The notes beneath the pieces are model-generated. The model did no database searches. It saw only the letters and a program-made list of their open reading frames with translations, and had not been told where the DNA came from. The position numbers were made by a program, and so were the translations under genes. A stretch of DNA of 62,448 bases from Coriobacteriales bacterium (lineage in GTDB: Bacteria > Actinomycetota > Coriobacteriia > Coriobacteriales > UBA8131). How positions within the stretch are numbered: the stretch's first letter is position 1; every line of letters begins with the position of its first letter. The stretch is taken from the NCBI GenBank assembly GCA_031268525.1, contig JAIRXA010000042.1, forward strand, positions 1 through 62,448, given 5' to 3'. Shown here in pieces: positions 4,937 to 49,772 of this stretch.

Positions 4937-4990
4937 GCATCAAGGGGCGGCTTGTCATCGGGCCACTTGAACACAAAATATCGTGTGAAT

Positions 4991-5018
4991 CAAAGAAGGC
5001 GACCTGTTGGTCGCCTTC
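4991..5018 (-). terminator. Intrinsic terminator downstream of csp
   Basis: Hairpin gaaggcgacc/tgtt/ggtcgccttc (4995-5018). On the minus strand it is followed by tttg. Confidence 0.6.
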
Positions 5019-5043
5019 CCCTGTGTTGGATGTCAGTATCTGA

Positions 5044-5247
5044 CTAGACCTTGCGGACGTTGCTCGCCTGGAGCTTGCCATTCTGGCCGGTGGTGATATC
5101 AAACTCCACCAACGCGTCCTCTTCGAGGGTCTTGAACCCATCGGACTGGATTTCCGAATAGTGGACGAACAAGTCGTCCCCGTCATCCCGAGAGATGAAC
5201 CCATAGCCTTTATCCGGATTGAACCACTTGACTTTCCCTTCAGCCAT
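5044..5247 (-). CDS. Cold-shock protein (CspA family)
   Basis: [33 protein letters not shown] carries the RNP1/RNP2 motifs. Start trimmed to ATG 5245-5247 (67 aa); the ORF-track extension is unlikely. Confidence 0.93.
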
Positions 5248-5460
5248 GTCTTGCCTTTCTTTCTGCCCACTGGGCAAACCACAAACGACACAGGTTTCAA
5301 CCAAGAAACCTGGGCCGCGAACCAATGAGCTCGTTTGAGCTCTTGAGAGATTTTACCATATTGTTACCTGATCGCTCCGTAAATCTGTATTTTTCTGATT
5401 CTTCTGCGGATTTTCCCTGGATTTTTGCCCTCAAAACAGCGGACGAAACACCGGGTGGGG

Positions 5461-9156: not shown

Positions 9157-9414
9157 TTAAAAGACCACGGATTTGTACGTAAAGTTCAGGCAGTTACTGC
9201 AAGGAAGTACGGCGGATATCTCATTAGGGTCGGTGGTCGCACGTCCGTTGCCGCACGCGACATAGCTGCCCCAAGTCTGGTAGTAGGTCCTCGCCACATA
9301 ATTGGCGCAATGTTCACGATCATGCGGTGCTTCGGCTTTTCCTGATGCCGACGATCCGCCACTCACTTGCTCAAGCTCTTTGTCCGACAACGCCTTTTCG
9401 TCCAATTCGCTCAT
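9157..9414 (-). CDS. Double-glycine-leader peptide precursor (class II bacteriocin / signalling-peptide-like), 85 aa
   Basis: The leader MSELDEKALSDKELEQVSGG matches the LSxxELxxIxGG double-glycine consensus. The 65-aa core has 4 Cys. A strong RBS (aaggaga) lies 6 nt upstream of ATG 9412-9414. Confidence 0.7.
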   Translation of the reverse strand: MSELDEKALSDKELEQVSGGSSASGKAEAPHDREHCANYVARTYYQTWGSYVACGNGRATTDPNEISAVLPCSNCLNFTYKSVVF

Positions 9415-9844: not shown

Positions 9845-11245
9845 ATGGAACATGCTGACCCGGGCAGAGTTCCGTTACTGCCAGAGGGTTGCCTTCTGGT
9901 CGTTATCGACGAAGATCCGACCAATCTGGGGAAATGGCGCTATTCCAGCACGGTCAATAATCTGACGCTCCTGGTGGTAAAGAACCGGATTAAGATTACT
10001 GCAGTCTGCAACCACATCCTCAAAATCTTTGAACACTTCACAACATGGGAGAATCAACTCAGAGAAATTATTCAAGGTTCTGGAAACATAAAGGAAATGA
10101 TTACCATAAGCGTACCGAATTTCGAAAATCCAATTGGCGTGGTAGATCAAAAAATGCAGGTCATAACTTCTGTGGATATCGTGGATTCGCAGTTTGCTGA
10201 AACATCAATGAAATACTCTGTCAATGACAGGCCGACCTTTCCCAAAGACATACCGGCGGAGCTGATCATGAAAAATCACATCAAATATAAGGCAAAGCGT
10301 GTTCCCTATTTTTATGTGGATAAATCGATTTACTCTGTCAATCTGTTTTCTGACGATGACTATATCGGCTCGGTAAGTCTCGCAGCCAAATTTCGACCAT
10401 TGACACATGCCGACATGGCTCTATTTGAATTTTTGGCAGAATTTTTACGTGAAGGATTATTGAAGCTCACGCCCGTTAAGGTTCATGAGAAAACCTGCCT
10501 GAGAAGTGTATTCATCAGTCTGTTGAAGAAAGCTGAAGTCAATGGAAAAGCCATCAAGGAGGCTTATCGGGGCCTCGATGACAAGCATCAATTTACAATC
10601 CTATGTCTTTATAACTCAACAATACATAGAGACATTCCCCCTGAATATATATGCGAACAGATAGAGCTCAGAATAGACGGATCATTGGCGACCTGCGTAG
10701 ATTCGGAGATTGTTATCCTTCTGAGTCTTGATGCACGGCAAAGCAATCTCGAGGATGCAATTCGCGGAATTTCCAGTTTTCTCGCAGAGTTCGATTTCCT
10801 GGCGGGCGTCAGCAACATATTCACCGAATTGGAAGACGTGTATTTCAATTATCTCCAGGCAAAATATGCGTTAGCAATAGGTTCTGGGACCAAGGCGGGT
10901 CAATCCTATTATCTTTTTCAAGAATTTGCCCTGTTATATCTTCTCAATAAAATGCTGGAAGACTTACCGCCCAGGTTCTTCGTGCCACCAAAGTTGATGC
11001 TCCTGAGCAGCTCTGGCAATACTTCAGGTGCAGAATACTGGAAAACACTGCATGTTTATCTGAAGAATTCCATGAACGTAACGCTTACTGCCAATGAACT
11101 TGGAATTACTCGAGGCTCCCTGTACAAACGCCTGGAAAAGATACATAAAATTCTGGGCATCGATCTGTACAACGCGAAATACCGATTGTATGTCGAAATC
11201 TGCATGAGTCTCATCGAATGGAACATCGAAAGCAAACAGGGGTAG
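9845..11245 (+). CDS. PucR/CdaR-family transcriptional regulator; as assembled it lacks its probable first ~49 codons, which lie in another frame from ATG 9697
   Basis: The C-terminal HTH (MNVTLTANELGITRGSLYKRLEKIHKILGIDL) is typical of the PucR C-terminal domain. There is no RBS before ATG 9845, but gagagg lies 8 nt before ATG 9697. This frame is open back to 9761. Confidence 0.8.
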   Translation: MEHADPGRVPLLPEGCLLVVIDEDPTNLGKWRYSSTVNNLTLLVVKNRIKITAVCNHILKIFEHFTTWENQLREIIQGSGNIKEMITISVPNFENPIGVVDQKMQVITSVDIVDSQFAETSMKYSVNDRPTFPKDIPAELIMKNHIKYKAKRVPYFYVDKSIYSVNLFSDDDYIGSVSLAAKFRPLTHADMALFEFLAEFLREGLLKLTPVKVHEKTCLRSVFISLLKKAEVNGKAIKEAYRGLDDKHQFTILCLYNSTIHRDIPPEYICEQIELRIDGSLATCVDSEIVILLSLDARQSNLEDAIRGISSFLAEFDFLAGVSNIFTELEDVYFNYLQAKYALAIGSGTKAGQSYYLFQEFALLYLLNKMLEDLPPRFFVPPKLMLLSSSGNTSGAEYWKTLHVYLKNSMNVTLTANELGITRGSLYKRLEKIHKILGIDLYNAKYRLYVEICMSLIEWNIESKQG

Positions 11246-11296
11246 AAAGGTTCTGAGACGGCATTATCGCTACAGATGCCTATCGTTTCATCGATA

Positions 11297-11348
11297 GAAA
11301 AATACCCAATAATGCCATGGCGCATTTGCAACCATGGCATTATTGGGT
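11297..11348 (-). terminator. Intrinsic terminator after the MDR dehydrogenase gene
   Basis: A 17-bp perfect stem, acccaataatgccatgg (11304-11320) / ccatggcattattgggt (11332-11348), is followed on the minus strand by attttt. Confidence 0.7.
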
Positions 11349-11369
11349 GTCGATAAGGCGAGGGGTACC

Positions 11370-12395
11370 TCAATAGACGATGGTGACCTTCTGAGATTCG
11401 GCAGGATTATTGGCCATCTTGAAAGCCTCAAGTATGTCATCCTGTTTGAACTGGTGTGATATAAGTGGAGCAAGATCGTATTTGTTTGATTTCATCATTT
11501 CAAGAACGTCAGGGGCAACATCTTCATAGCGACCATCGCCACATCCGCAGATACAGAGATCGTTATAGCAAACCTTTATGAGATCGAGTGTCTTTGGATG
11601 ATGGTGAACTCCTACGATCGATAAAACTGCACATCTTGATGCAAGTTCCATAAAGTAATCAACACCTACATCAACTGTCAGAGCATCTACATATAAATCT
11701 GCGCCACAGCCTTCGCCCATAAATTTCCGCTTCGTCCCAAACTCAGACTTAGCCCTTTCTGCAAGATCCTCGTTTTGAGGATTACAGACAAGGAAGCCAA
11801 AACTCTCTGCATTTTTCAGGCGATAATCAGAGATATCAACGACCATAACCCTATCGCAGCCATACCAATCCAGCATGATGGCAGAAGACATTCCAATAAT
11901 GCCTGCACCGAAAACTATGCCGGTTTTGCCCGGACCGGGATTCGTCCGTCTGGCCCCCTTTGTGCCGATGACAAAAGGTTCGAGAAGTACAGAAGAAAGG
12001 AGCGGTATATCCCTGTCGATCTTGATGGCGCTGAAATTAATCTCGAAATCTGGGATATGGACATATTCGGAAAAGCCACCGACGGTTGCTGTACGCATAT
12101 AGTCACGCTTGGCATTGCCCATATTGGGGAATACATGGTCCCCGATCTCGATATCCTTGACGTTCTTTCCAACCTCGATGACTTCACTTGTCATTTCATG
12201 CCCGAATTCAGAACCCTCCCAAATCATGTTGGCGTCGCCACCTAGATTGAAGGCAGCAAGATCGCCACCGCAAATTCCAGCTATTCTATTTTTCACAATT
12301 ACATCATTATCGCCGCATTGTGGATAAGGCAACTCCTCAATATCGATTTTCCCAATCCCTTTGTAGATTGCAGCTTTGTAGGTTTTTTGCGTCAT
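11370..12395 (-). CDS. Zinc-type medium-chain dehydrogenase/reductase (MDR family)
   Basis: GICGGDL (catalytic Cys), FGHE, a GDHV motif, and a GAGIIG Rossmann motif. No structural-zinc Cys cluster is visible. Confidence 0.85.
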   Translation of the reverse strand: MTQKTYKAAIYKGIGKIDIEELPYPQCGDNDVIVKNRIAGICGGDLAAFNLGGDANMIWEGSEFGHEMTSEVIEVGKNVKDIEIGDHVFPNMGNAKRDYMRTATVGGFSEYVHIPDFEINFSAIKIDRDIPLLSSVLLEPFVIGTKGARRTNPGPGKTGIVFGAGIIGMSSAIMLDWYGCDRVMVVDISDYRLKNAESFGFLVCNPQNEDLAERAKSEFGTKRKFMGEGCGADLYVDALTVDVGVDYFMELASRCAVLSIVGVHHHPKTLDLIKVCYNDLCICGCGDGRYEDVAPDVLEMMKSNKYDLAPLISHQFKQDDILEAFKMANNPAESQKVTIVY

Positions 12396-12438
12396 AGTCT
12401 ATTCTCCTTCATGCCTGTACCTGGAATCTGATATGTAT

Positions 12439-12498
12439 TTTGACCATCAAGCTGGCTGAAGAAATGCTCTATGGAACCAAGCCAGCTTGATGGTCAAA
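12439..12498. repeat. 19-bp perfect inverted repeat with a 22-nt loop, between the GcvT-like gene and the MDR gene
   Basis: Arms are tttgaccatcaagctggct (12439-12457) and agccagcttgatggtcaaa (12480-12498). No U-tract on either strand. Confidence 0.85.
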
Positions 12499-12525
12499 TA
12501 GTGCGTCAGTGACTGAATTGCAGAA

Positions 12526-13584
12526 TCATGCGAAAACTCTTTCGGTCAAAGTTCCTGAATATCCGTTAATGACAATGCGATCGCCGATCTTTGCCTTATC
12601 GGCATCGACAAGGGCAAAGCCGATGCTTCGTTCGGAGATGTAGCCATAGGTAAACTTTGTTACACGACCCACCTCTTCGCCACCCATCAATACCGGATGC
12701 CCCGAGCCGCCCCTGTCTTTGGGATGAATATGGACATCGTCCTCGTCTGTGATAAAGCCCAACAGAGTACGCTTTGGCCCTTCTTCTTTGATTTTCAACA
12801 AGGCTTCCTTACCGATAAAATCTTTATTCCAATCGACCCCATCAGCCAGACCAACCTCAAAGGGGTTTGCCCACTGGATATCGGCCATCAGATAGAAGCC
12901 CTTCTCCGTCGGAAGGCTTAAGGCCATAATCTGGAATTCCTGCACTTCGACAGCGCCGAAGTCCTTGCCAGTTTCAGCAAGCTTGGCTTCAATGGTTTCG
13001 CAGAACGCGGGAGAAACATAGATCTCATAGCCCACTTTCTCGCCGGTAAATCCACCCCTGTTGATTTTCACGGGGATGTCATCGATCTTGTTGTCAAGAA
13101 TCTGGAAGAATTTCTGATCATCAATATTCTTTTCAACAAGTGCATTAACCAAGTCTTTTGATTTGGGGCCCTGTACGGCATACATATCCCATTGGTCGGT
13201 GATGATTTCATAGGTAACATCATAGTCGCCCTTATGAGTATCAAGCCATCTCGTTAATTTGACAGCATACAGCGTTGAGACCCAGAATTTGTTTTCTTCG
13301 AGGCGAAATACAACCACATCATCAAGAATCTGAGCCTGCTCATTGAGCATGGTGGTGTATCTGGCACGGCTGACTTCCAAATTGGAAATGGGCTTCAGGT
13401 AAATCAAATCCAGGAAGGCGGCCGCATCCTTGCCGGTAACTTCGACCAGATGATGCGTGAAATAATACCAGCCCACGGTATTTCTTACCGCCTCATGCTC
13501 CCTACGCTTCCAATCATCGTATTTGTATACGTTTTTAAAGATTTTCATCTCATCGAATCTATAAGCGTCTTCGTTTTTAAACAT
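12526..13584 (-). CDS. Aminomethyltransferase (GcvT) family folate-binding protein
   Basis: 352 aa with GcvT-like architecture: VGWYYFTHHLVEVTGKDAAAFLD, YAVQGPKS, INRGGFTGEKVGYEIYV, and a C-terminal barrel GRVTKFTYGYISERSIGFALVD. Confidence 0.8.
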   Translation of the reverse strand: MFKNEDAYRFDEMKIFKNVYKYDDWKRREHEAVRNTVGWYYFTHHLVEVTGKDAAAFLDLIYLKPISNLEVSRARYTTMLNEQAQILDDVVVFRLEENKFWVSTLYAVKLTRWLDTHKGDYDVTYEIITDQWDMYAVQGPKSKDLVNALVEKNIDDQKFFQILDNKIDDIPVKINRGGFTGEKVGYEIYVSPAFCETIEAKLAETGKDFGAVEVQEFQIMALSLPTEKGFYLMADIQWANPFEVGLADGVDWNKDFIGKEALLKIKEEGPKRTLLGFITDEDDVHIHPKDRGGSGHPVLMGGEEVGRVTKFTYGYISERSIGFALVDADKAKIGDRIVINGYSGTLTERVFA

Positions 13585-13635
13585 GCTCGGTACACCCTTT
13601 CATCTAATAGAACTGTCTCTGAACAAGAGACAATA

Positions 13636-14961
13636 TTAGAGACAGAATTTGTCGACCTTCTTTGCGATCTTAATGCGGAACTTACCCTCGGGGACATCTT
13701 CTGTTTCTTCCCAGAGAGACCACGCGGAACCAATCAAAGTTTTGCTCATGCCATACCACATCGGAATGTAAGCATCCTTCATAAACGCCATGCCATTCTC
13801 GAATCTCTTGATATCAATGTCGTAGATGACATCGTCTTTGTTAAAGGCGACGATGTCGTACTGGTTCTTCCTGGCTTGCAGATAAACCTCTATGTAGGCG
13901 CCCAAAACACGACCGTCATTGACATCATTGGGAACGCCCAGCCAATCGCGAAGGCCCTTGACCGCATAGGCGTCAAGGAACATCATCTTTCCAACACCTC
14001 GAAACATCAACTCAAAGAGGGCGCTTACCTCTTCACGGGTGACTTCGCCTTTTTTAATCATGTCCTGAAGTGCGAACGTGACATAATCGCAGCCGAGGTT
14101 GCTTCCTGAGCTCACGTCATAGCCACCTCTGCCGCCACCTTCTCCGGCGGCGTTATACTCGGCACAGGTTCCTGTGCGATACTTGAACTCACAGTCTTCA
14201 CGAAACATCTGGAGGCCCCTATAATCGAGCTTTTCCTCCTCGGGGGTGTATTTAACGAGCTCCGGTGCAGCTAAAGGACCAAAGTTATCCCATTTTTCTC
14301 GTGGTGGCATGGGAAACTTGTCAGGGTTTTCGCCAATCATGCGACAATGTGGATCGCCACAACCTAAAGCCTCGACCATGGTCACGCGTAACTCTGGGCC
14401 GCGGTCCCTGCTGAATCTTTTCCATGAATCACCGAGCTTTTCCGTACCTGCCCAAGGAGAGGTATGGCAGATCTCTGTGCCTAAGATGTCCCAGGGGCAG
14501 GTATCCAATTCCTTTTCAAAGCGGAAAGAACCAAAGTCGTTGACGCGCCCAGCCATAAACAGACTCTCGTCACCATTATCGCCCGACATGGCCGTCGGAA
14601 AACAACCTCTCATGAAGGGAAAGACGTCCATGGTTACGGCTGTCGGTTTGCAAAAATTTCTGCCTTCAGGTTCAGGGGCGAACATTTTAATATAGAACTC
14701 ATCAGCAGTGTCACAGCAGCGGGTGACACGAGTTGCATAGTCAGGAATATAATGACGAAGTACCTCATAGAACACAGCGCCTACGCCCGCACGATGGCGA
14801 GCAATGAATACCATCGCATCATACAGAGAGATAAGTTTCTCCCAGGGAGTCTTTATAGCTGGATTATCGGGCAGATGACCTTTACCTATGTCGTTGGGTA
14901 AACGGGTGTCGATTGTATTACTCATAATGTCTAACAACTCCTTCCAGAATTTATCATTCAT
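13636..14961 (-). CDS. Hypothetical Cys-rich protein, 441 aa, no family recognised
   Basis: Long ORF 51 nt upstream of the GcvT-like gene on the same strand. It has about 19 Cys in clusters (TRCCDT, LGCGDPHCR, EDCEFKYRTGTCAEY) and a GEGGGRGGY tract. No TM helix or signal peptide is evident. Confidence 0.7.
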   Translation of the reverse strand: MNDKFWKELLDIMSNTIDTRLPNDIGKGHLPDNPAIKTPWEKLISLYDAMVFIARHRAGVGAVFYEVLRHYIPDYATRVTRCCDTADEFYIKMFAPEPEGRNFCKPTAVTMDVFPFMRGCFPTAMSGDNGDESLFMAGRVNDFGSFRFEKELDTCPWDILGTEICHTSPWAGTEKLGDSWKRFSRDRGPELRVTMVEALGCGDPHCRMIGENPDKFPMPPREKWDNFGPLAAPELVKYTPEEEKLDYRGLQMFREDCEFKYRTGTCAEYNAAGEGGGRGGYDVSSGSNLGCDYVTFALQDMIKKGEVTREEVSALFELMFRGVGKMMFLDAYAVKGLRDWLGVPNDVNDGRVLGAYIEVYLQARKNQYDIVAFNKDDVIYDIDIKRFENGMAFMKDAYIPMWYGMSKTLIGSAWSLWEETEDVPEGKFRIKIAKKVDKFCL

Positions 14962-15143
14962 TCAATGTGCTCTATCAGAACGTTGCTGCCTCTCTCCCTT
15001 CTCAAACCTATTCGTTTATTCAACCTGTTCCATAAGCATTTCTCTTTTTGCCTCCTCTCCTTCTGCTTATCGTGTTGATTCGAATTCAAGTTGATAGGAT
15101 TTTTTGATCCCACTCGCGGAAAGATTCACAACCTATGTTTTGT

Positions 15144-16568
15144 CTAGGCCTGCGGCTTTGATTTCACCAGGAACTGCCCCATGACCAAAGCTATGACAGC
15201 TATGGCAGTGGCAATGACGAGCGCTACGTTCATTCCCTGCGTAATGCCAAAACTGGCCATAATCAGTGTATAGACAGCCATGCCAATGCTTGAACCGAGA
15301 TTTTGTGCTGTCTGCACCAACGAATTGGCTTGAAATCGCAATTCAGGCTTGATTTGGATTTGCGGCGCAGTCGACGAGGTGACGTTTTGTTGTGCAGAAT
15401 ACAGACCCGCAATAAACATCAACACATAGACGATCGGGAGCGGCGTTTGAGGAGATAGGATGATTATGACCGCTATGGTTACCACGATTCTCACCAGGGT
15501 ACCCACGGTGATCAAACCACGAGCGCTGCCTTGGCGCACAATCAATTTCCCCAGAAATGGACTGATAAAAATGCCCGGCACGGCATAAATGGCTGTGCTG
15601 AACGCTGCGTAGAGACCGCCACCATCTAAAACACTGATAATATATGCAGGCATGAAAAATACCAGAGCATTGGCTGAAGTATTGATGAAGAAATTATAGA
15701 GGGCAAGAGCCACCGTATTACGATCTTTCAGCATTGCCAGGGGGATAAAGGCCTGTTCACGCTTTTTGGAAAAATCTACCAGCAGCATCACAAAACCAAC
15801 CATCGCCACCAAAATAAGTGCATGGGACAGAGGGCTTCCGAATGGAACGTAGGTAGTACCGAGCGATAATGTCATGACCAGTCCGAGCAATAACAAAGTG
15901 AGAGAAAATGCGCCAAGGGCATCAAATCCAACTTTCCCCTTAAGATGGGGAGCTGCCTGAGCCCGAGTGACCTTGACGCCGATCATGATGAAAAGTACTG
16001 CCAGCAGAAGCAGTGGCACACTGATGCGATACGCTACTCGCCAACCCAGAGTGTCGGTTATAAGTCCAATGATCGTTGGCCCAATAAACATACCTATGCT
16101 GGTCACGGTGCCAATAAAGCCAAGGTAGATTGCTGCCTGGCGTGCATTGTACATATCTCGGATCATAGAATACGCCACCACGAAAATGGAAGCGCTTACT
16201 GCTCCATAAAAGAAGTTGACAGCAATAATCACAAACATGTTTGGCGCAAAGGAAATAGCTGTAAAGATTGCAGCGCCCAGTGTTAATGAGCCGGCAAGAA
16301 GAGGGCGCTTCAGTGCTGGATTACCGGCACCCAGAAAACCGTAGATCGGCATGATGCAGATCGACATTGCACCACCAACGCTCGATACCAATGGGTAAAT
16401 ATCCATACCACCAATATCGAGTGCCGCCATGGGTAATAAGGTAAATGTGCCGGTTGAGATGAAGCGCGTAATCAAAGCTGCAAGGTATATACCAATAAGA
16501 GTGAGCCTCTTCTTCGAAGGGGAAGCCATCGCAAAGAGGTTAACCAGCTCTCTTTTCTGTGCATCCAT
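15144..16568 (-). CDS. MFS transporter (14-TM, DHA2-like), paralog 1
   Basis: 474 aa, hydrophobic throughout, with a GxLxDxxGWR-like motif (GLITDTLGWRVAY). Collinear with the two genes upstream. Confidence 0.85.
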   Translation of the reverse strand: MDAQKRELVNLFAMASPSKKRLTLIGIYLAALITRFISTGTFTLLPMAALDIGGMDIYPLVSSVGGAMSICIMPIYGFLGAGNPALKRPLLAGSLTLGAAIFTAISFAPNMFVIIAVNFFYGAVSASIFVVAYSMIRDMYNARQAAIYLGFIGTVTSIGMFIGPTIIGLITDTLGWRVAYRISVPLLLLAVLFIMIGVKVTRAQAAPHLKGKVGFDALGAFSLTLLLLGLVMTLSLGTTYVPFGSPLSHALILVAMVGFVMLLVDFSKKREQAFIPLAMLKDRNTVALALYNFFINTSANALVFFMPAYIISVLDGGGLYAAFSTAIYAVPGIFISPFLGKLIVRQGSARGLITVGTLVRIVVTIAVIIILSPQTPLPIVYVLMFIAGLYSAQQNVTSSTAPQIQIKPELRFQANSLVQTAQNLGSSIGMAVYTLIMASFGITQGMNVALVIATAIAVIALVMGQFLVKSKPQA

Positions 16569-16657
16569 GATATGCGCGCTTCTTTCCTGATAGATACGTT
16601 GCCACGATGGTTCAAGGTCCGGACAATTCTTTGATTGCCCATGTAGGGCTTCTTATC

Positions 16658-16692
16658 TTTCCCAGAGGCGCGTCAACGGCGCCTCTGGGAAA
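16658..16692 (-). other. 14-bp GC-rich hairpin just after the MFS paralog 2 stop
   Basis: tttcccagaggcgc / gcgcctctgggaaa with a 7-nt loop. The trailing U-tract is weak, so terminator function is uncertain. Confidence 0.5.
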
Positions 16693-16706
16693 TCCAGTCG
16701 TACCAA

Positions 16707-18182
16707 TCAGTGTTCTGTCTCTTTCGCAAGTGTTTCCGCCCTTGCTTTTATGTCTTCCTGCTCCTTCTCCTCGTTCCAATCAGGTTTCTTCATGATTATT
16801 CCGCAGATCATGAGTGCCACAGCTCCGGCAAGGGCCAGATAGAGCCCATAGGTCATGCCCTGTTCTTGCCCAAATGCTGTAATAATTGCGGTATACACAG
16901 GAATACTCAATACGCCACCGTAGGTCTGTCCGAGCTGGATGAGCGCATTGGATTGTTGCCGAACCTTAGGCTCGATCATGACCTGAGGTGCCGCGGTTGT
17001 AACAATGTTAGCCGCTGAAGCGTAAAGACCCGCAAGGAGCATCAGAAAATATACGACATAGATATTGGCGCCGGGAACAAGGACGAAAATGAAAACAATG
17101 GTAATAGCCACTCTCCAGGCTCCACTGAACCAGATAACGATAGGTTTAACCGTACCGGATTTTGCTACCCAACGACCAAATATCGGACCGAGGAAAAGGC
17201 CAACGACTGCATAGCACGACATCGCAATGCTTGAAGCACCGGCTCCAGTGCCAAGAACATAAATCAGGAACATGGGCAGGAAGAAGGAAAGGGCCATCGA
17301 AGAGAAGGGGCTGAAGAAGTTTGCTCCAAAGAGCGCAATGGTATTTCTGTTCTTGAACGCAGAAAGGGGAACTATGGCTGCATCTCTCTTTCTCCTGATG
17401 GTAATGATCAAAACAACCAGAGAGATGGCAGCAACCGCGAAAAGCAGATTATTGGCAAGAGTGCCAAATTTTATATAGTTGCCGCCGAGAGAGAGGGCGA
17501 CTATCAGGCTGGCGAGTAAAAAGCTCAGCGAAAGCGCCCCTATGAGATCGAACTTTCCCTGCACATACGATATCAATTTTCCTTCTTCTTTGGTAATGCG
17601 AGCACCAAAGAAGACTATGATGGCAGCGATGAGGAAGATTGTCGCCTGAAATCCTGTAACAAAGCGCCAGCTCGCCAGCTCAATCAAGCCACCCGTTAAA
17701 ACCGGACCTACCAACGAACCAACCGCAAGCATGGTTGCGAGAAAGCCCAGGTAAATTCCCGCTTGCTTTTGACTGAAGCAGTCTCTGATTATGGTATAGC
17801 CAAAGGTATACAGTGCAGCTGACGCGAAGCCAATCAAGACTGACGGAATAATAAAAGCCAACATATTCGGAGCAAGCGTACGACCCAGCAAGGCTACGAC
17901 ACCCAAGAGAAAGCCCACGACAAAGCCTGTTCGCTTAAGCGTAGGAAATTTTGCCCCGAGAAAGCCAAAGAGCGGCATTGTGGCAACGCTGATAGGGCCA
18001 ATCACTGATGCGGCAAGGGAGTAGATGTCTTCTCCGCCTATATCCTGTGCCGCCATCGGCAGAAGTATTGAGTTGCCCATTGCTATTGTGATGGATCCGA
18101 ACATTCCGATATAAACGCCAATTACCGTCAGCATTTTTCGTACTTGAGTATTATTTCGATAGGGATTTACCACGTCCATCAT
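16707..18182 (-). CDS. MFS transporter, paralog 2
   Basis: Very similar along its length to paralog 3, for example ITKEEGKLISYVQGKFDLIGAL and the tail MKKPDWNEEKEQ. Start trimmed to ATG 18180-18182, preceded by ggaga and matching paralog 3's MDAVNPY start. Confidence 0.85.
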   Translation of the reverse strand: MMDVVNPYRNNTQVRKMLTVIGVYIGMFGSITIAMGNSILLPMAAQDIGGEDIYSLAASVIGPISVATMPLFGFLGAKFPTLKRTGFVVGFLLGVVALLGRTLAPNMLAFIIPSVLIGFASAALYTFGYTIIRDCFSQKQAGIYLGFLATMLAVGSLVGPVLTGGLIELASWRFVTGFQATIFLIAAIIVFFGARITKEEGKLISYVQGKFDLIGALSLSFLLASLIVALSLGGNYIKFGTLANNLLFAVAAISLVVLIITIRRKRDAAIVPLSAFKNRNTIALFGANFFSPFSSMALSFFLPMFLIYVLGTGAGASSIAMSCYAVVGLFLGPIFGRWVAKSGTVKPIVIWFSGAWRVAITIVFIFVLVPGANIYVVYFLMLLAGLYASAANIVTTAAPQVMIEPKVRQQSNALIQLGQTYGGVLSIPVYTAIITAFGQEQGMTYGLYLALAGAVALMICGIIMKKPDWNEEKEQEDIKARAETLAKETEH

Positions 18183-18306
18183 TCTGTCTCCAAACCGTTT
18201 CTCGTTTCCGCAAGGTACGAAGAATGGCTGGACAGCGAGCTGCCGCCACTCTTCGTCATATTCTGTCTTTGCCAAAGACACCAAAAAACACGCTTCTGGG
18301 AATTAA

Positions 18307-19791
18307 TCACACCGAACTGTCGTTGTCCGTCTCTTTCGCAAGTGTGGCCGCTCTTGCCTGTATCGCTGCCTGTTCCTTTTCTTCATTCCAATCGGGTTTC
18401 TTCATGAAGAAACCCAGGATCATGAGCACGATTGCGCCCGTAAGAGCTATACAGAGACCGTAGGTCATGCCTTGTTCCAGACCAAATACCCCGATGATGG
18501 CTGTGTAGGTTGCAATACCCAATACGCCACCAAAGTTCTGCGTGAGCTGAATGAGTGCATTGGATTGTTGCCGAATGCTCGGTTCAATCATAATCTGAGG
18601 CGCTGTGGCAGAAGTAATGTTGTTTGCATTGGCATACATGCCCCCCAAAAACATCAGGGCATAGATGACATAGAGATTCGCTCCGGGAACAAGTACGAAG
18701 ATGAAAGCAATGGTAATGACTACTCTCCAGGCTCCACTGAACCAGATGACGATGGGCTTTGCCGTACCAACTCTTGCTACCCAACGACCAAATATGGGAC
18801 CGAGGAAAAGACCGAGGATTGCATAGCACGAAACCGCAATGCTCGAAGCACCGGCTCCAACACCGAGAATATAAATGAGAAACATGGGCAAGAAGAAGGA
18901 GAGTGCCATTGAATCGAAGGGACCGAGAAAGTTTGCTGCAGCAAGTGCAATGGTATTTCGACTCTTAAACGCAGAACGAGGCACTATGGCGGCGTCACCT
19001 TTCTTTCTGATGACAAAGATTAAAACAATTAAAGCGATCAATGCGGCAGCCAGGAGAAGTATGTTAAAAGGAGTACCGAATTTTATGTAGTTGCCACCAA
19101 GAGATAAGGCAACTATCAGGCCGCCGAGTAAAACGATAATCGCCAAGGCTCCTGCAAGGTCGAACTTCCCCTGTACATACGATATCAGTTTCCCCTCTTC
19201 CCTGGTGATGCGAGCACCGAAGAAGACTATGATGGCAGAAATAATGAAGAGTGTTGCCTGAAACGCTGGGACAGATCGCCAGCCAAACAACTCAATGAAA
19301 CCACCCGTTAAAACCGGACCTATCAACGAACCAACTGAGAACATCGATGCTACAAGTCCCAGATAAAACCCCGCCTGTTTTTGGCTGAAGCAATCTCTGA
19401 CCATTGAGTAACCAAATGTATAGAGCGCTCCTGATTCGATGCCAAGTAAGGCCGATGGAATGATAAAGGCGACCATATTCGGAGCAATGATTCGGCATAT
19501 CAGGGCTACAGCGCCCAATAGGAAGGCCGTACAAAAACCAATGCGCTTGATGTGGGGGAATTTTGCTCCGACATAGCCAAAAAGAGGCATTGCTACCACG
19601 CTCAAAATGCCACCTATTGTCGCAGCCAATGAGTAGATTTCTTCCCCTCCTATATCCTGCGCCGCTACCGGAAGCAGTATTGAGTTACCCATGGCAATCG
19701 TAATGGCGGAGACCATACCAACATAGATGCCGACGACTGTCAGCATCTTTCGCGCTTGAGAATTCTTCTGGTAGGGATTCACTGCGTCCAT
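18307..19791 (-). CDS. MFS transporter, paralog 3
   Basis: Start set to MDAVNPYQKNSQARKMLTV, with ggaga before ATG 19789-19791. ITREEGKLISYVQGKFDLAGAL and the tail MKKPDWNEEKEQ mirror paralog 2. Confidence 0.85.
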   Translation of the reverse strand: MDAVNPYQKNSQARKMLTVVGIYVGMVSAITIAMGNSILLPVAAQDIGGEEIYSLAATIGGILSVVAMPLFGYVGAKFPHIKRIGFCTAFLLGAVALICRIIAPNMVAFIIPSALLGIESGALYTFGYSMVRDCFSQKQAGFYLGLVASMFSVGSLIGPVLTGGFIELFGWRSVPAFQATLFIISAIIVFFGARITREEGKLISYVQGKFDLAGALAIIVLLGGLIVALSLGGNYIKFGTPFNILLLAAALIALIVLIFVIRKKGDAAIVPRSAFKSRNTIALAAANFLGPFDSMALSFFLPMFLIYILGVGAGASSIAVSCYAILGLFLGPIFGRWVARVGTAKPIVIWFSGAWRVVITIAFIFVLVPGANLYVIYALMFLGGMYANANNITSATAPQIMIEPSIRQQSNALIQLTQNFGGVLGIATYTAIIGVFGLEQGMTYGLCIALTGAIVLMILGFFMKKPDWNEEKEQAAIQARAATLAKETDNDSSV

Positions 19792-20577
19792 TATTCCGTC
19801 TCCAATCCTTTCTTGCTCGTATGTGGGCATGCATTGCAGCTCTCTGTCTTTTTATTGACTGGTTTGAACAGAGCAGCGACTGGCTAACGTATGTAACTCA
19901 TCGTTTCATATTCAGCTATCAAGGTGCACCTATAAAACTTCTTGAAATACCCCTTGACTTCCATGGTTGGGTCGCTCGAAGCCCTCTTATTCATATTCCT
20001 CTCAGTGATATCTACCCTCTCAATTGTCAGGTCAATCTCTCCTGCTTCTCTGGGAAACAGGATGGTAACCATTTGAAAACCATCTGTTATTCTTATTCAA
20101 AAATGCAGCATTTGATATACGGCAAACTGTTTCCCAAAAGCCCTGAATTGGTGCACACTTTATAACCTGAGCCCGCAGATGGGCAAAGCGGTTTATGCCT
20201 TTCTACCAGCACAAATAGCTCTTGTGATGTCTCCAGGATAATCTTTGCAGCGAAACGGCTTTTACGGGGAGGTGCCTTCCTGGGCATTACTTCCCTCTTC
20301 AAGCCACTCGGTTGAGGCGATGAGGCCGATCAGTTGTGTGCGTCCCGCCACCAAGTCCATCAATACCCTCTCAATACCACGCATGCTCGAAACAGGGGCA
20401 GCGACAGGCGGGAAACAAAATGTGCACCAAAACACACAGGTAAAGCAACAGCTTGCTGTCTAGGGAAAGGCACGTATTGAGGAGATAATGGAAGTACCTT
20501 GTGGCTGGGTATTTCTCGTACCCACCCCTGAAGGAGCAGGATGAAAGGTAGATTCTTTTCGAGAGGAGAAGCATTTC

Positions 20578-21585
20578 ATGCGAGCAGCCATTTATCATGA
20601 TATACAGGATGTTTCTATTGAAGAGATACCGGATCTTCGCTGTGGAGCCAGGGACGTTCTGGTCAGGAATGTCCGGGCAGGCATCTGCGGCTCTGATGTT
20701 ACCGGCTATTTTAAGGGTGGTAAATATGCCGGAATTTATGAGGATAGACAGTTTGGCCACGAAAATGCGGGTCGTATAGTTGAAGTCGGAAAAGATGTTG
20801 AAGGATTCGGCGTTGGAGATAAGGTCTTTGTCAATCCCAATAGAGCCATTGCGCCAGGCGAGGGAGATATGCTTGGCGCTTTTTCTGAATATATTCTCGT
20901 GCCGAACGCAGAGGCCAATTACAACATATTTCTACTCCCTGAAAACATGAGTTACGATGTCGCTGTTTTGATTGAGCCTTTTTCTGTTGGCATACATGGA
21001 TATAATGTTGCAGGCGTGAAGCCAGATGACCATGTCGTCGTTTATGGGGTTGGAACGATCGGCATCAGCAGTATCTGTGGCCTCCTTGCCAAAGGCATCA
21101 AACCGGTCGCGATGGTAAGAAGCAATGCCAAAAGAGAGTTTCTTGAGCGAGCGGGAGCCATCGTGTGCAATATCAATGAAGTAGACCGGTTTGAATTTTT
21201 GAGAGAAACATTCGGAACAACACTTCATAGAAATCGCTATCCTGCAATCGATGTCGATCTTGTCATTGACGCTGCAGGCGGTCCTGAAATCGTTGCGGAT
21301 TTCCTTCAAATGTGTAAGCCGAAATCAAAGTTGTCAGTTCTTGCTGTCGTTTTTGAGCCATTTCCTGTACCGATGGCCCGTCTTATGAGTTCAGAAACGA
21401 TAATCATGGGATCCTGTGGTTTTAACGAGGAAGATGTCCTTGAGGCCATCGATAATTTGACTTCAGGCAAGACGCTGATGCCTGGGATCATTACAAGCCA
21501 CTACAAACTCGATCAGATCAATGAGGCGATCGTAATGGCACAAAACCGTGAAAAATCAATTAAAGTTCTTATTGATATGGAGTAG
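20578..21585 (+). CDS. Zinc-type medium-chain dehydrogenase/reductase (MDR family), second copy
   Basis: GICGSDV, FGHENAG, GDKVFVNP and a GVGTIG Rossmann motif. Same subfamily look as 11370-12395. Confidence 0.85.
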   Translation: MRAAIYHDIQDVSIEEIPDLRCGARDVLVRNVRAGICGSDVTGYFKGGKYAGIYEDRQFGHENAGRIVEVGKDVEGFGVGDKVFVNPNRAIAPGEGDMLGAFSEYILVPNAEANYNIFLLPENMSYDVAVLIEPFSVGIHGYNVAGVKPDDHVVVYGVGTIGISSICGLLAKGIKPVAMVRSNAKREFLERAGAIVCNINEVDRFEFLRETFGTTLHRNRYPAIDVDLVIDAAGGPEIVADFLQMCKPKSKLSVLAVVFEPFPVPMARLMSSETIIMGSCGFNEEDVLEAIDNLTSGKTLMPGIITSHYKLDQINEAIVMAQNREKSIKVLIDME

Positions 21586-21651
21586 TCTCCTTCGACACGT
21601 AAGCCATATCACCTCGGTCGTGCTGGAAGATCACTACAGAAGGGATGCCTT

Positions 21652-22173
21652 GTGCACGAAACACTACTGAATAAATATGCAATAAACCATATCGGATATT
21701 ACGTTAAAGATCTTGAGTTGGCCTGTAGAGAACATTCTGCTCTTTTCGGATCGGGTCCGTTCTTTTACCTGGGCGAACACACAATGACGAGTATCGCGAG
21801 AGGCAGGGAATATGAATATACCTCCCGAGCGGCTTTCGGACAATTTGGAGACCTTCAGATAGAGTTCATTCAGGTGATCAGCGACAACCCCAGTGCCTAT
21901 AAAGAAATGGAACGATTCGGCCTCAATCATTTTTCAATCTGGGTTGATAACGTGGATAGCGCAATTGAAGAATTCGAGAACGCGGGCTATGAAATCGCGA
22001 TGCGACTGAAATCAAGCGGAGGTGCCGAGATCATCTACTTTGATGGTGTAGAAAAATGGGGGCACTATCTGGAAGTCAGCGCTCCTGCCGAGGGTATGTA
22101 TGAGTACTTCAAGAAGGCCGCTGAAGACTGGGATGGCTCAGAACCCTATCGTAGGCTCAATATGGGTAAGTAA
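21652..22173 (+). CDS. VOC (glyoxalase/bleomycin-resistance/dioxygenase) family protein
   Basis: INHIGYYVKDLE...FGLNHFSIWVDNVD...WGHYLEV shows the paired beta-alpha-beta-beta-beta module pattern. GTG start per the ORF track. Confidence 0.75.
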   Translation: MHETLLNKYAINHIGYYVKDLELACREHSALFGSGPFFYLGEHTMTSIARGREYEYTSRAAFGQFGDLQIEFIQVISDNPSAYKEMERFGLNHFSIWVDNVDSAIEEFENAGYEIAMRLKSSGGAEIIYFDGVEKWGHYLEVSAPAEGMYEYFKKAAEDWDGSEPYRRLNMGK

Positions 22174-47992: not shown

Positions 47993-48374
47993 GGTTGCAA
48001 TGAGGCGTGCTCCTTTGACCATCCGTGAGGAAAGCCCGGCCTCGCCTATAGATAATATATCACCGACGCTTCTGGACTTCAATCACGTCACTCGCGTCAC
48101 TTTTCCATCTTTAGCAATCATGATGATCCGGTAGATGCTCTTCCTTTGCGTGAGATACCGCGATAGCTCGGAGGCAATCCTTTTATCGTCGAGCTAGGGA
48201 AGTGTGGCGAGACAAAAAAAGTACCTTTGCTTTTTGCTTTTTGCTTTTTGTCTTGCGTTCGTATGCAGAGAGCCGTAGGGTCGAGCGTAGGTTCCGCTCC
48301 TACAGATTCGTCCCTGCAGGTCCGTCCGATCCGCACCTACGATCCACTCCCGTTTTTGCCCGCGTAGGACTGTA

Positions 48375-48446
48375 TTTCGCTGTTAATGCGCGCGAAAGAC
48401 AACCGCTGAGGAGAAAATCGGTTGACTTTCGCGCGCATTAACGAAA
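48375..48446. repeat. Long imperfect inverted repeat / hairpin (about 28-bp arms, 13-nt loop)
   Basis: tttcgctgttaatgcgcgcgaaagacaaccg ... cggttgactttcgcgcgcattaacgaaa. The core 17 bp, gttaatgcgcgcgaaag, is perfect. Confidence 0.85.
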
Positions 48447-48638
48447 CTTTTGGCTCTCCGCCACCACTTAAAATAAATCTCCGCTCTCACATAGTCGCCA
48501 AAGTCCTACGCATTCTGAAGATATCATCCGGCAAAAAAATTCGTCCTATGGACCAGAGTAAACATCCAACTATGCAGATCATATCACGCAAAATCAACAG
48601 GCCTGAAGTCGATGAGCTTCTGGCCTGCAAAAATGACG

Positions 48639-49664: not shown

Positions 49665-49772
49665 CCTTGGGAGAGCCTGGGGGACGACGCAGGAGTCAGT
49701 GGTAGGAGGTGGGGCAAGGTAGTCTGTCGGTTTTGTGACGTTTTACAGGCTTTTGAGACAGCCCATTTTTCG

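Follow-up and report, generated by a model that had tools for sequence, protein, structure and literature searches.

Gene content of the locus

The window, i.e., the whole stretch of DNA analyzed, covers 62,448 nucleotides of a contig of a Coriobacteriales bacterium (JAIRXA010000042.1). Its reverse strand carries the gene of a Cys-rich protein, here called X441 (13636..14961; maximal open reading frame of 441 amino acids), followed on the same strand, after 51 nt, by the gene of a GcvT-like folate-binding protein of the aminomethyltransferase family, here called GcvTL (12526..13584; 352 amino acids; Pfam GCV_T and GCV_T_C). This arrangement, already described in the first-pass annotation, was borne out in all its parts by the ORF calls. 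Next comes a Zn-type alcohol/polyol dehydrogenase of the MDR type (11370..12395, reverse strand; Pfam ADH_N and ADH_zinc_N), which we consider the third component of the module, and then a PucR/CdaR-type transcriptional regulator on the forward strand (9845..11245; Pfam HTH_30 and GGDEF_2). Upstream of X441 there are three tandem MFS transporters on the reverse strand (15144-16568, 16707-18284, and 18307-19830; Pfam MFS_1) and, on the forward strand, genes for another MDR alcohol dehydrogenase (20578-21585; 32% identity with the one above) and for a VOC/glyoxalase-family protein (21652-22173), both recognized by Pfam. The GC profile places the window copy of the module in a low-GC island inside a high-GC genome, which suggests horizontal transfer.

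The true start of X441 is likely the ATG at 14925 (Met13), 36 nt downstream of the start of the maximal ORF, giving a protein of 429 amino acids, since the Shine-Dalgarno-like stretch GGAAGGAG precedes Met13 and since the closest homolog (P0001) also has 429 residues. The five motifs previously quoted for X441 are all present (RCCDT at residue 81, LGCGDPHCRMIG at 199, EDCEFKYRTGTCAEY at 255, GEGGGRGGY at 273, and NLGCDY at 288), and the lack of a transmembrane segment agrees with a top Kyte-Doolittle mean of 1.06 over 19 residues. The protein has 12 cysteines (2.7%), and the figure of about 19 given earlier was too high. The GEGGGRGGY tract is a lineage-specific insertion, missing from most homologs.

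The X441 family

No Pfam or NCBIfam model matches the window protein, nor did any Pfam model match the 44 aligned homologs even at an E value of ≤5. The earlier view of X441 as an orphan is nonetheless wrong, as 153 homologs were found at an E value of ≤1e-3 in a 90%-clustered database and the family occurs at 333 places in a collection of species-representative genomes. All these homologs are labelled hypothetical, save one UniRef entry named "4-vinyl reductase 4VR domain-containing." The family is compact, with full-length members of 397 to 441 amino acids, and no domain fusion of the "Rosetta stone" kind turned up when the profile was run exhaustively against 1.84 billion representatives (162 matches). 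A sequence search of the PDB, with both the single sequence and the profile, gave PoxR as the sole match, below significance, and Pfam, NCBIfam, and PDB sequence searches showed no similarity to aldolases, DUF1989, or flavoenzymes. Full-text literature searches on GcvT-like enzymes, V4R domains, and anaerobes found no paper on the family.

The hosts are anaerobic, largely gut bacteria, including many human-gut Lachnospiraceae, Blautia, and Oscillospiraceae, and the occurrence of two to three paralogous modules within one genome is common. Isolates with the module include Fusibacter paucivorans DSM 12116 (WP_213235091.1), Desulfitobacterium chlororespirans DSM 11544 (WP_072771663.1), Qiania dongpingensis, Laedolimicola ammoniilytica, and Cuneatibacter sp. 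NSJ-177. Hundreds of places, often several paralogous copies per genome, and a separate regulator for each copy make a pattern typically seen in catabolic enzyme families diversified by substrate.

The GcvT-like partner

GcvTL belongs to the GcvT/aminomethyltransferase superfamily, as both Pfam domains score above their gathering cutoffs (GCV_T, PF01571, E value of 1.1e-41 and 143.2 bits against a cutoff of 25.6; GCV_T_C, E value of 5e-10 and 39.6 bits against 25.9). The motifs DDVV, RxGFTGEKxGYE, and NPxEVGL are invariant across the family, the DD pair of GcvTL being D88 and D89. The nearest PDB entries are true T-proteins, 1WOO (E value of 1.5e-32) and 1YX2, with further matches to dimethylglycine dehydrogenase (DMGDH), SoxA, and Tdm.

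The scores against the NCBIfam GcvT models are far below their cutoffs (TIGR00528, 122.4 against 235.85 bits; NF001567, 159.1 against 300 bits), and neither gcvH nor gcvP was seen in the window neighborhood or among the conserved neighbors of the module. By both measures, GcvTL falls outside the T-proteins of glycine cleavage proper. The protein is likewise far below the cutoffs of the NCBIfam demethylase models (LigM, 63 against 580 bits; DesA, 80 against 800 bits; DmdA, 110 against 410 bits) and of the Tdm model (130 against 1100 bits). A sister clade of GcvT-like proteins, 45 to 51% identical, was found without X441; it follows that a T-like enzyme of this sort need not depend on an X441-type partner.

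Linkage and co-divergence of X441 and GcvTL

In 70 of the 80 genome loci, GcvTL is the direct same-strand neighbor of X441; with four more loci in which a contig end cuts GcvTL, the pairing amounts to 74/80, and the median intergenic gap is 31 nt. The co-occurrence of X441 homologs with GcvT-like genes, whose survey across genomes had been proposed as a check, is thus a conserved neighborhood. The order of the two genes is reversed in L008, L018, and L019, where they still adjoin, and distant X441 members with 25 to 30% identity keep the pairing (e.g., L081 and L084); L034 and L039 have X441 without GcvTL despite enough room. When the search was seeded with GcvTL, X441 was found immediately upstream in 61/80 metagenome loci. 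Roughly 130 linked pairs of X441 and GcvTL are available. Furthermore, the distance matrices of the two proteins are correlated with an r of 0.90 (Mantel P = 0.001).

The position of the window copy in a low-GC island could suggest that the adjacency is meaningless and that X441 merely co-travels on mobile islands. We find this explanation hardly credible, since the pairing holds across Clostridia, Spirochaetia, Desulfobacterota, Anaerolineales, and Coriobacteriia MAGs down to about 25 to 30% identity, with gene order kept, short gaps, and independent paralogous copies inside single genomes. Taken as comparative evidence, the linkage and co-divergence argue strongly that X441 would work as the dedicated partner of GcvTL.

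Predicted fold and conserved cysteine site of X441

The AlphaFold (AF2) model of X441 has a pLDDT of 88 and a pTM of 0.87. Structure prediction combined with a fold search, which the first-pass annotation had recommended, led to the V4R/Bet3/H-NOX fold superfamily (PMC2253512), and the assignment is made by superposition of the predicted model on solved members. In particular, the full-length model matched H-NOX, Bet3, PoxR, MopR, and DmpR with a Foldseek probability of ~1.0, H-NOX being among the best matches at 18 to 19% identity. According to the model, X441 is made of two tandem ligand-binding-fold domains of this superfamily. Domain A (residues ~33 to 215; 14317..14865, reverse strand) is predicted as a helical bundle with a V4R-like beta-beta-alpha-beta-beta arrangement in the AF2 secondary structure, and it holds 46 of the positions conserved at ≥90% in the family. 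Domain B (residues ~276 to 436; 13654..14136, reverse strand) is the second V4R/Bet3/H-NOX-like domain; modeled alone, it reached a pLDDT of 89 and matched Bet3 (E value of 5.5e-4, TM score of 0.56) and MopR and PoxR (TM scores of 0.50 to 0.55). Comparison of the two domains with hhalign detected no similarity, so that an internal duplication was not seen, and Pfam V4R (PF02830) matched none of the 44 family members at an E value of ≤5. X441 also has a conserved KIDKFC tail.

The conserved cysteines outline a putative metal (Zn) site in domain A (14344..14499, reverse strand), formed by C155, C165, E197, C201, H205, and C206 within the motifs RxEKELDxCPWD...GSExCR and EAxGCGDxHCR, with a cysteine spacing of C-x9-C-x35-C-x4-C. 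Among the 44 homologs, C155 is conserved in 44, C165 in 43, C201 in 39, H205 in 42, and C206 in 44; C83, C257, and C440 are kept in 35 to 38, and the other cysteines are not conserved. Hence, of the cysteines on which the earlier proposal of metal binding relied, C155, C165, C201, and C206 proved conserved (at least 39/44), and the remaining ones fell below that level. Since these four cluster in the sequence, metal binding by X441 appears plausible.

The Zn site of V4R domains of the MopR/PoxR type consists of Cys, Glu, Cys, and Cys around an E-x-x-C...GCG..HC motif, and in V4R sensor domains this Zn is structural. The X441 profile pairs the conserved motif MVEAKGCGDLHCRIV with ELECVGCGHPHCRIL of the PoxR V4R domain, at an E value of 0.21 that is not significant alone; in this alignment, the two proteins would have the motif E..GCG..HCR in common. 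The PoxR stretch aligned to the Cys motif of X441 is ELECVGCGHPHCRILG, and this stretch in PoxR/MopR is one that we take to be the Zn-binding site. The putative Zn site of X441 is probably structural. The suggestion of a metal- or Fe-S-binding protein is retained as plausible for the Cys cluster, which aligns, below significance, with a V4R Zn site, and loses ground for Fe-S, as no recognizable Fe-S motif occurs: the ferredoxin-type CxxCxxC is found in 0/44 family members, although a noncanonical cluster may be present.

The same data bear on the possibility that X441 carries a tetrapyrrole, a corrinoid, or a [4Fe-4S] cluster on its four conserved cysteines and serves as a redox or methyl carrier between the substrate and GcvTL. 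Heme is the ligand of H-NOX, one of the top fold matches, and BchJ has a link to intermediates of chlorophyll; besides, the site offers four conserved cysteines and one histidine, and Fe-S and corrinoid chemistry is common in strict anaerobes such as the hosts. We nevertheless consider such a carrier quite improbable, given that the CxxCxxC motif is missing, that the propionate-binding motif YxSxR, which marks H-NOX heme sensors together with a proximal His, occurs in only 2/44 family members, that the alignment puts the Cys motif on a Zn site, and that genes for corrinoid activation, B12 binding, or ferredoxin are not conserved around the module.

The fold matches also raise the hypothesis that X441 stands outside the chemistry, as a small-molecule sensor that regulates PucR or gates GcvTL. 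V4R domains occur in XylR, DmpR, PoxR, and the archaeal Msr/MsvR regulators, and both X441 domains are predicted to have the fold of the V4R sensors XylR, DmpR, MopR, and PoxR. Moreover, most of the 80 loci have a PucR-like gene at a distance of no more than a few kilobases, and the sister clade of GcvTL manages without X441. Different from those sensors, X441 has two domains in one chain, no AAA+/HTH output, and an enzyme-operon setting, and Pfam and NCBIfam recognized in it no DNA-binding or signalling output domain. In addition, its gene is separated from GcvTL by ~15 to 60 nt, whereas the PucR-like gene is usually on the opposite strand, X441 diverges in step with GcvTL, and it is kept in L084, where the regulator is of the LysR type. 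We therefore regard a purely sensory role as improbable, albeit slightly less so than that of a cofactor carrier. The PucR/CdaR-type gene of the window probably regulates the module.

A variable dehydrogenase as third component

In most other loci, an SDR is found where the window has its MDR dehydrogenase. The SDR lies inside the operon in 39 of the 51 resolvable operons, and an MDR alcohol dehydrogenase takes its place in other operons, the window included. The PDB entries nearest to the window MDR are sorbitol and threonine dehydrogenases, and its orthologs, with 57 to 62% identity, adjoin the module in L001 and L008. The earlier idea of a two-component system is sustained as regards X441 being a dedicated partner (adjacency in 74/80 loci and r of 0.90) and has to be amended for the conservation of a third component, an NAD(P) dehydrogenase.

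The distance matrix of the adjacent SDRs gave a correlation of 0.60, and their mean distance is 0.60 versus 0.40, the SDRs being far more divergent. Given this weaker correlation, compared with 0.90 for X441 and GcvTL, and the higher divergence, the module can be described as a constant core with a variable dehydrogenase. That the SDR is a methylene-THF dehydrogenase was ruled out, as the SDRs diverge more than the core and are interchangeable with MDR alcohol dehydrogenases. The divergence of the SDRs and their replacement by MDR enzymes point to variable substrates.

The dehydrogenase, as an obligatory neighbor, would fit a scheme in which the substrate is oxidized to be activated, and this leads to the alternative that X441 is the catalytic subunit, a Zn-dependent lyase or transferase making a C1 unit at the formaldehyde or iminium level, which GcvTL would merely trap on tetrahydrofolate (THF) like the GcvT-like domains of DMGDH, SoxA, and Tdm. 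Examples of such chemistry would be the Lewis-acid activation of an ether oxygen or, on a beta-hydroxy or beta-amino ketone supplied by the dehydrogenase, a cleavage of the retro-aldol or retro-Mannich type. The window enzyme is indeed of the polyol/threonine dehydrogenase type, DMGDH, SoxA, and Tdm are among the PDB matches of GcvTL, and in characterized systems a GcvT-like domain is often coupled to a separate catalytic domain. Furthermore, many invariant charged residues (R139, D142, R147, E149, K150, E151, D153, E197, R207, and E211) surround the Cys site; their presence in domain A would be as consistent with a catalytic or cofactor site as with an interface. Against this alternative, we know of no enzyme among the characterized proteins of the V4R/Bet3/H-NOX fold, all of them ligand binders or sensors, the equivalent V4R Zn is structural, and X441 resembles none of the aldolases, DUF1989 proteins, or flavoenzymes. 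A lyase or transferase of this kind is thus unlikely, although it ranks before the carrier and the sensor.

Comparison with known GcvT-like systems

GcvT-like folate domains are the standard cellular trap for reactive C1 fragments. GcvTL resembles GcvT of the GcvT/GcvH pair in consisting of GCV_T and GCV_T_C, in keeping the DD and folate-binding motifs, and in being encoded beside a dedicated, nonhomologous partner protein. The partner is different, X441 being a 430-amino-acid tandem V4R-like protein and not a lipoyl protein; indeed, no lipoyl or biotinyl attachment domain was recognized in it by Pfam or NCBIfam. Moreover, the P- and L-protein genes are not linked to the module, and an SDR or MDR dehydrogenase is linked instead.

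Dimethylglycine dehydrogenase/oxidase, the alpha subunit of sarcosine oxidase, and the TMAO demethylase Tdm, which come next among the PDB and NCBIfam matches of GcvTL, share with the proposed module the logic whereby a catalytic or binding part frees C1 at the formaldehyde level and a GcvT-like part traps it on THF. There, the partner is a flavin domain or DUF1989 (Zn/Fe) within the same chain, mostly with O2 or ETF linkage, whereas the module has a separate V4R-fold protein, strictly anaerobic hosts, and a nicotinamide dehydrogenase as the redox component. The THF-dependent, single-subunit demethylases and demethylenases of the GcvT family, namely the aryl O-demethylases LigM and DesA, DmdA, and SesA/BrdA, are comparable for the direct transfer of C1 from the substrate to THF, independent of O2 and corrinoids, and GcvT-family enzymes cleaving methylenedioxy groups have been described (PMC5547118). 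Different from GcvTL, which has 340 to 350 amino acids and is weakly similar to them, LigM, DesA, DmdA, and SesA/BrdA are partner free, with ~370 to 470 amino acids and a substrate pocket of their own.

To our knowledge, the GcvT-like systems described so far pair with a lipoyl carrier, with a flavin or metal oxidase domain, or with nothing, and no V4R protein is known to us as the partner of a folate enzyme. The novelty of the module would lie in a GcvT-like protein paired with an unnamed V4R-fold putative zinc protein and a nicotinamide dehydrogenase.

Proposed function of the module

We propose, with about even confidence for and against, that X441 and GcvTL are the invariant core, and an NAD(P) alcohol dehydrogenase the third component, of an O2-independent catabolic module moving a C1 unit from an imported organic compound to tetrahydrofolate. 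The analysis shows the family to which GcvTL belongs, the predicted fold and the conserved site of X441, the linkage of the two genes, and their co-divergence. We infer that X441 and GcvTL form a complex in which C1 is handed over to folate, and likewise infer what Zn does, which way the reaction runs, how oxidized the C1 unit is, and the class of substrate assumed here. The PucR regulators, the MFS transporters, and the two to three paralogous modules per genome indicate a catabolic character.

In the proposed mechanism, the substrate would be taken up by an MFS transporter and the operon induced by the PucR-type regulator. The SDR or MDR dehydrogenase, variable and substrate specific, would act on a hydroxyl or carbonyl of either substrate or product, by oxidation or reduction. 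The ligand pocket or pockets of X441 would hold the substrate, probably hydrophobic or aromatic, and X441 would dock on the T-protein-like enzyme, standing in for the aminomethyl-lipoyl arm that the H-protein provides in glycine cleavage, and might activate the leaving group as well. GcvTL, with its catalytic DD and folate-binding motifs kept, would then trap C1 on THF, most likely as 5,10-methylene-THF, which could be converted to formate and ATP via FolD, FchA, and FTHFS or enter acetogenesis. Since the characterized members of the fold superfamily are ligand binders, a catalytic role of X441 is unproven, presentation of the substrate in place of the H-protein being no less likely. Several substrates were considered, with none favored: the gamma-CH2OH of lignin side chains, methylenedioxy lignans or alkaloids, O-methyl sugars, polyols, and beta-amino alcohols.

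It is possible to go further and hypothesize, as a tentative reading that we would sooner expect to fail than to hold, that X441 represents a new enzyme class. No earlier member of the V4R/Bet3/H-NOX superfamily would have catalyzed a reaction or presented a substrate, and X441 would be to a T-protein-like enzyme the obligate partner that the H-protein is elsewhere. Together with the dehydrogenase, it would allow anaerobes of the gut, rumen, and termites to harvest formaldehyde-level C1 as methylene-THF, free of corrinoids and O2. If so, hydroxymethyl, methylenedioxy, aminomethyl, and methyl-ether groups of plant-derived compounds could be C1 sources, and the methylene-THF harvested would yield formate and ATP or acetate. 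We know of no such route in current maps of anaerobic C1 metabolism. The substrates, once identified, could explain the C1 trimming or demethylation of dietary and plant compounds by gut anaerobes that are non-acetogenic and by those that use no corrinoid systems, and their gain of ATP through formyl-THF synthetase. Furthermore, a function for X441 would annotate many proteins now called "hypothetical," all of one family, and for the first time place the V4R fold in an enzymatic setting.

Other genes in the neighborhood

Genes of folate C1 oxidation lie beside the module in only ~4/80 loci: FolT, FocA, FchA, FolD, and FTHFS adjoin it in L009, and subsets of them do so in L008, L044, and L047. 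MetF was not seen near the module among the loci examined. In L028, the module is flanked by genes of LigM/DesA-like THF demethylases, each with its own PucR gene. PanB-like, DsdA-like, and alpha/beta-hydrolase genes also occur among the neighbors of the module. A scan for promoters and terminators between 9 and 22.5 kb of the window gave no promoter excess and a weak terminator excess over shuffled sequences.

Some of the loci also have MFS genes with the module; those of L010 are 52 to 54% identical to the window copies, of which the two distal ones share 71% identity. The window transporters probably import the substrate. The second MDR alcohol dehydrogenase and the VOC/glyoxalase gene may be accessory genes; the two (20578..22173) sit at the edge of the low-GC island.

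The X441 protein and its family

In the window, the Cys-rich protein X441 is encoded by a minus-strand ORF of 441 aa (13636-14961), followed downstream, after a gap of 51 nt, by the same-strand gene of GcvTL, a GcvT-like folate protein of 352 aa (12526-13584, minus strand). The first-pass annotation, whose observation on this pair was largely correct, had described both genes and the gap as we find them, and all the X441 motifs that it quoted occur in the sequence; the approximately 19 cysteines that it attributed to X441 come to 12 on counting, and the GEGGGRGGY tract, though present in the window protein, is an insertion absent from most homologs. The lack of TM segments was confirmed, as the 19-residue mean hydropathy peaks at 1.06, below what a membrane helix would need. 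Translation probably begins at Met13 (ATG at 14925), giving 429 aa, since the ribosome-binding sequence GGAAGGAG lies upstream of it and the length then equals that of the closest homolog (429 aa); residue numbers refer here to the 441-aa form.

X441 has no match in Pfam or NCBIfam, and the 44 aligned homologs have none in Pfam even at E ≤ 5. It is not the orphan that had been supposed, since 153 homologs were recovered at E ≤ 1e-3 from a 90%-clustered protein collection, and 333 places encoding a relative came up when one genome of each species was scanned. The homologs are named hypothetical or uncharacterized everywhere, save for one UniRef entry (4-vinyl reductase 4VR domain-containing), and our literature searches turned up no paper on the family. 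Searched exhaustively with a profile, 1.84 billion representatives yielded only 162 matches, whose full-length members all measure 397 to 441 aa and among which no fusion to another domain occurs, so that, as judged from these searches, the family is compact, isolated, and of a single architecture. The hosts are anaerobes, including Lachnospiraceae (with many Blautia, Merdimonas, and Lachnotalea), Oscillospiraceae, Eubacteriaceae, Peptococcaceae, Desulfitobacterium, Fusibacter, termite-gut Spirochaetia and Treponema, Desulfosarcina, and Anaerolineales, together with MAGs labelled Atopobium and Cryptobacterium (Coriobacteriia genera). Of the metagenome matches, many stem from the human gut.

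Linkage of X441 with the GcvT-like protein

The window proteins were compared by tblastn with the 80 best genome loci of the 333 places. A GcvT-like gene, 48 to 67% identical to that of the window, lies directly beside X441 on the same strand in 70 of these 80 loci and is truncated by the contig end in 4 more; three others (L027, L043, and L069) have less than 350 nt of sequence downstream of X441, L043 being short upstream too, and in L009 the gene is 2.3 kb away, with a regulator in between. Despite sufficient room, it is missing from just two loci, L034 and L039. The intergenic distance has a median of 31 nt, and adjacency is kept where the gene order is swapped (L008, L018, and L019), as is the pairing in very distant members (P0137 in L081 and P0143 in L084). 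Furthermore, the pairwise distance matrices of the two proteins are correlated (r = 0.90, Mantel p = 0.001), and in several genomes the X441-GcvTL module is present as two or three paralogs, indicating that duplication and divergence affect the two genes together. The dedicated partnership first proposed is thus well supported by comparative genomics; that the adjacency is meaningless hitch-hiking is hardly credible beside this linkage.

In the reverse test, 80 metagenome loci were seeded with the GcvT-like protein alone; X441 was immediately upstream in 61, and 3 had no room for it. The other 16 belong to a sister GcvT-like clade, 45 to 51% identical, found solo in unrelated contexts. Every close relative of GcvTL is therefore linked to X441, and enzymes of the broader type can do without that partner. 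The sister clade (in metagenome loci L138 to L160, e.g., L147 at 4010-5041, without X441) is not canonical GcvT; by eye, its varied neighbours include NadA/B/C-like NAD biosynthesis, NiaR-like, and TRAP-type transporter genes.

GcvTL itself is clearly a member of the aminomethyltransferase superfamily by its Pfam matches (GCV_T, 1.1e-41; GCV_T_C, 5e-10), and genuine T-proteins are nearest to it (1WOO, 1.5e-32). The motifs IxDDVV, which holds the catalytic Asp of T-proteins, RxGFTGEKxGYE, and NPxEVGL are invariant in 71 sequences. Since these motifs are kept, while GcvTL falls below the NCBIfam equivalog cut-offs of GcvT, DmdA, LigM, DesA, and Tdm and no gcvH or gcvP is linked to it, its sequence marks it as a distinct subfamily with the predicted machinery to accept a methylene-level C1 unit on THF.

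Fold and conserved site of X441

The AlphaFold2 model of X441, obtained with the 44-sequence alignment (pLDDT 88.1, pTM 0.87), predicts two domains of the same architecture, domain A (residues ~33 to 215) and domain B (~276 to 436), each with four or five bundled helices followed by a beta-beta-alpha-beta-beta unit, joined by a 60-residue linker that is well ordered in the model; no sequence similarity between the two domains is detectable. Foldseek searches of the PDB returned a single fold class, whose members are H-NOX, TRAPP Bet3, and the V4R domains of the sensors PoxR, MopR, and DmpR (TM 0.4 to 0.56, normalised to the target; probability ~1). Domain B modelled by itself (pLDDT 89) matched Bet3 (E 5.5e-4, TM 0.56), MopR, and PoxR (TM 0.50 to 0.55). 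These folds constitute one recognised superfamily (PMC2253512). The predicted fold is thus shared with V4R proteins, but X441 does not match the Pfam V4R model and its tandem architecture is unique. The kinship with sensor domains would suit X441 being a sensor or regulator itself, which we consider distinctly unlikely given its close pairing with a folate enzyme.

Conservation peaks in domain A, where 46 positions are at least 90% conserved, with a charged cluster (R139, D142, R147, E149, K150, E151, D153, E197, R207, and E211) and all the strongly conserved cysteines, namely, C155 (44/44), C165 (43/44), C201 (39/44), and C206 (44/44), besides H205 (42/44). The family profile pairs MVEAKGCGDLHCRIV with ELECVGCGHPHCRIL of PoxR, an alignment that is not significant by itself (E = 0.21) and agrees with the fold result; in the MopR and PoxR structures, the zinc of the V4R domain is held by Glu and Cys ligands from this segment. 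The heme motif YxSxR of H-NOX occurs in only 2/44 sequences and the ferredoxin-type CxxCxxC in 0/44. The most fitting reading of the conserved cysteines is thus a putative V4R-type Zn site, and the Fe-S catalysis suggested at first is not supported; that X441 carries a tetrapyrrole, corrinoid, or Fe-S cofactor, as its H-NOX-like fold might allow, is very unlikely. A true Zn-dependent catalytic lyase, a sub-variant of the three-component system discussed below, would accommodate both the putative Zn site and the charged cluster and appears rather unlikely. As a separate observation, the last ten residues (window 13636-13665, minus strand) form a conserved basic tail, (R/K)IKIAKKIDKFC, in which D437 never varies and 38/44 homologs have the penultimate Cys; speculatively, it could be a flexible arm or an interface element.

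The dehydrogenase and the wider neighbourhood

The system is not restricted to the two components originally envisaged. When all neighbouring ORFs were clustered de novo, 39 of the 51 operons that could be resolved proved to include a classical SDR, placed immediately upstream of X441 or immediately downstream of GcvTL, and an MDR alcohol dehydrogenase (sorbitol/threonine dehydrogenase type) replaces it or is additional in other loci, the window included. Divergence is much greater among the SDRs (mean distance, 0.60) than in the core (0.40), which they follow only loosely (r = 0.60); this suggests that the X441-GcvTL machine is constant and the dehydrogenase working with it substrate-specific.

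A PucR/CdaR-type regulator, mostly divergent, is near the module in most loci, and MFS transporters adjoin it in a subset of them. In the window there are three, arranged in tandem (15144-19830, minus strand); the distal two are 71% identical to each other, indicating a recent local duplication, and ~36% identical to the proximal one. In L009, FolT, FocA, FchA, FolD, and FTHFS adjoin the module, a gene set that would suffice to take methylene-THF all the way to formate and its export, with gain of ATP; subsets occur in L008, L044, and L047, and no MetF was seen among the module neighbours. In L028, a Eubacteriaceae MAG, the SDR-X441-GcvTL module is flanked by two LigM/DesA-like homologs of THF-dependent aryl O-demethylases (4144-5466 and 16758-18137; 148 and 238 bits with the LigM model, under its cut-off), each with its own PucR gene, which hints at corrinoid-independent O-demethylation in an anaerobe. 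Paralogs of PanB-like ketopantoate hydroxymethyltransferase adjoin the module in L010, L013, L019, and L020, accompanied in L010, L013, and L019 by a trigger-factor-C-like gene and in L010 and L020 by a Cpn60/GroEL-like one. Occasional neighbours are an alpha/beta-hydrolase and DsdA-like dehydratases (D-serine dehydratase, by eye), the latter convergent with the SDR-X441-GcvTL operon in the Peptostreptococcales/Tissierellales isolates L012 (12429-13703) and L024, which may hint at a serine-like or hydroxymethyl product.

Proposed function and relation to known systems

As the best-supported reading, it is possible to hypothesize, with roughly even confidence, that X441, GcvTL, and the variable dehydrogenase make up a three-component catabolic module moving a C1 unit onto THF. 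The substrate would be imported and the PucR regulator would switch the operon on; the dehydrogenase would work on a hydroxyl or carbonyl of substrate or product, while X441, holding the substrate in its V4R-type pocket(s), would dock on GcvTL as H-protein does on T-protein, possibly with activation of the leaving group. GcvTL would then put the C1 unit onto THF, and FolD, FchA, and FTHFS would turn it into formate and ATP, or it would enter acetogenesis. Of this model, the analysis shows the fold and conserved site of X441, the gene linkage, the codivergence, and what the folate partner is; formation of a complex, the part played by the metal, the direction of the reaction, the oxidation level of the C1 unit, and the substrate are inferred.

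The logic resembles that of GcvT/GcvH and of DMGDH, SoxA, and Tdm, where a catalytic domain is fused to a GcvT-like one, and the outcome that of single-subunit THF demethylases/demethylenases, such as LigM, DmdA, and SesA/BrdA (PMC5547118). However, GcvTL is under the equivalog thresholds of GcvT, Tdm, LigM, and DmdA, X441 is no lipoyl protein and corresponds to no flavin or DUF1989 domain, and the redox partner is, different from all these systems, a nicotinamide dehydrogenase, which places the X441-GcvTL system outside these groups. Trapping of C1 units by a folate enzyme that has its own dedicated partner is thus of a known kind, and the protein family at the centre of this system is new. 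Conserved and widespread among gut anaerobes, the module is uncharacterised and lends itself well to testing.

Genomic context in the window

The whole module lies in a low-GC block (~10000-22000; GC, 0.43 to 0.49, versus 0.55 to 0.61 in the flanks), and consists here of the genes for the PucR regulator, two ADHs, GcvTL, X441, the three MFS transporters, and a VOC protein. On either side are genes of housekeeping appearance (by eye Tgt-, QueA-, and PcrA-like ORFs, besides chorismate mutase and a radical SAM protein), and this arrangement suggests that the block is an island acquired by horizontal transfer, the donor probably being Clostridia-like and of lower GC. At the edge of the island, an 85-aa ORF (9157-9414, minus strand) without a Pfam match looks like a bacteriocin or RiPP precursor, with a double-glycine-type leader (…LSDKELEQVSGG) and a Cys-containing core (HCANY…ACGNG…PCSNC). 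The 832-aa ORF at 5461-7959 (minus strand), of PcrA/UvrD-type helicase appearance by eye, contains a low-complexity acidic, proline-rich insertion with repeated DPAPGLVD-type units. A second low-GC stretch (0.44 to 0.49) occurs at 48000-52000 within a high-GC background.
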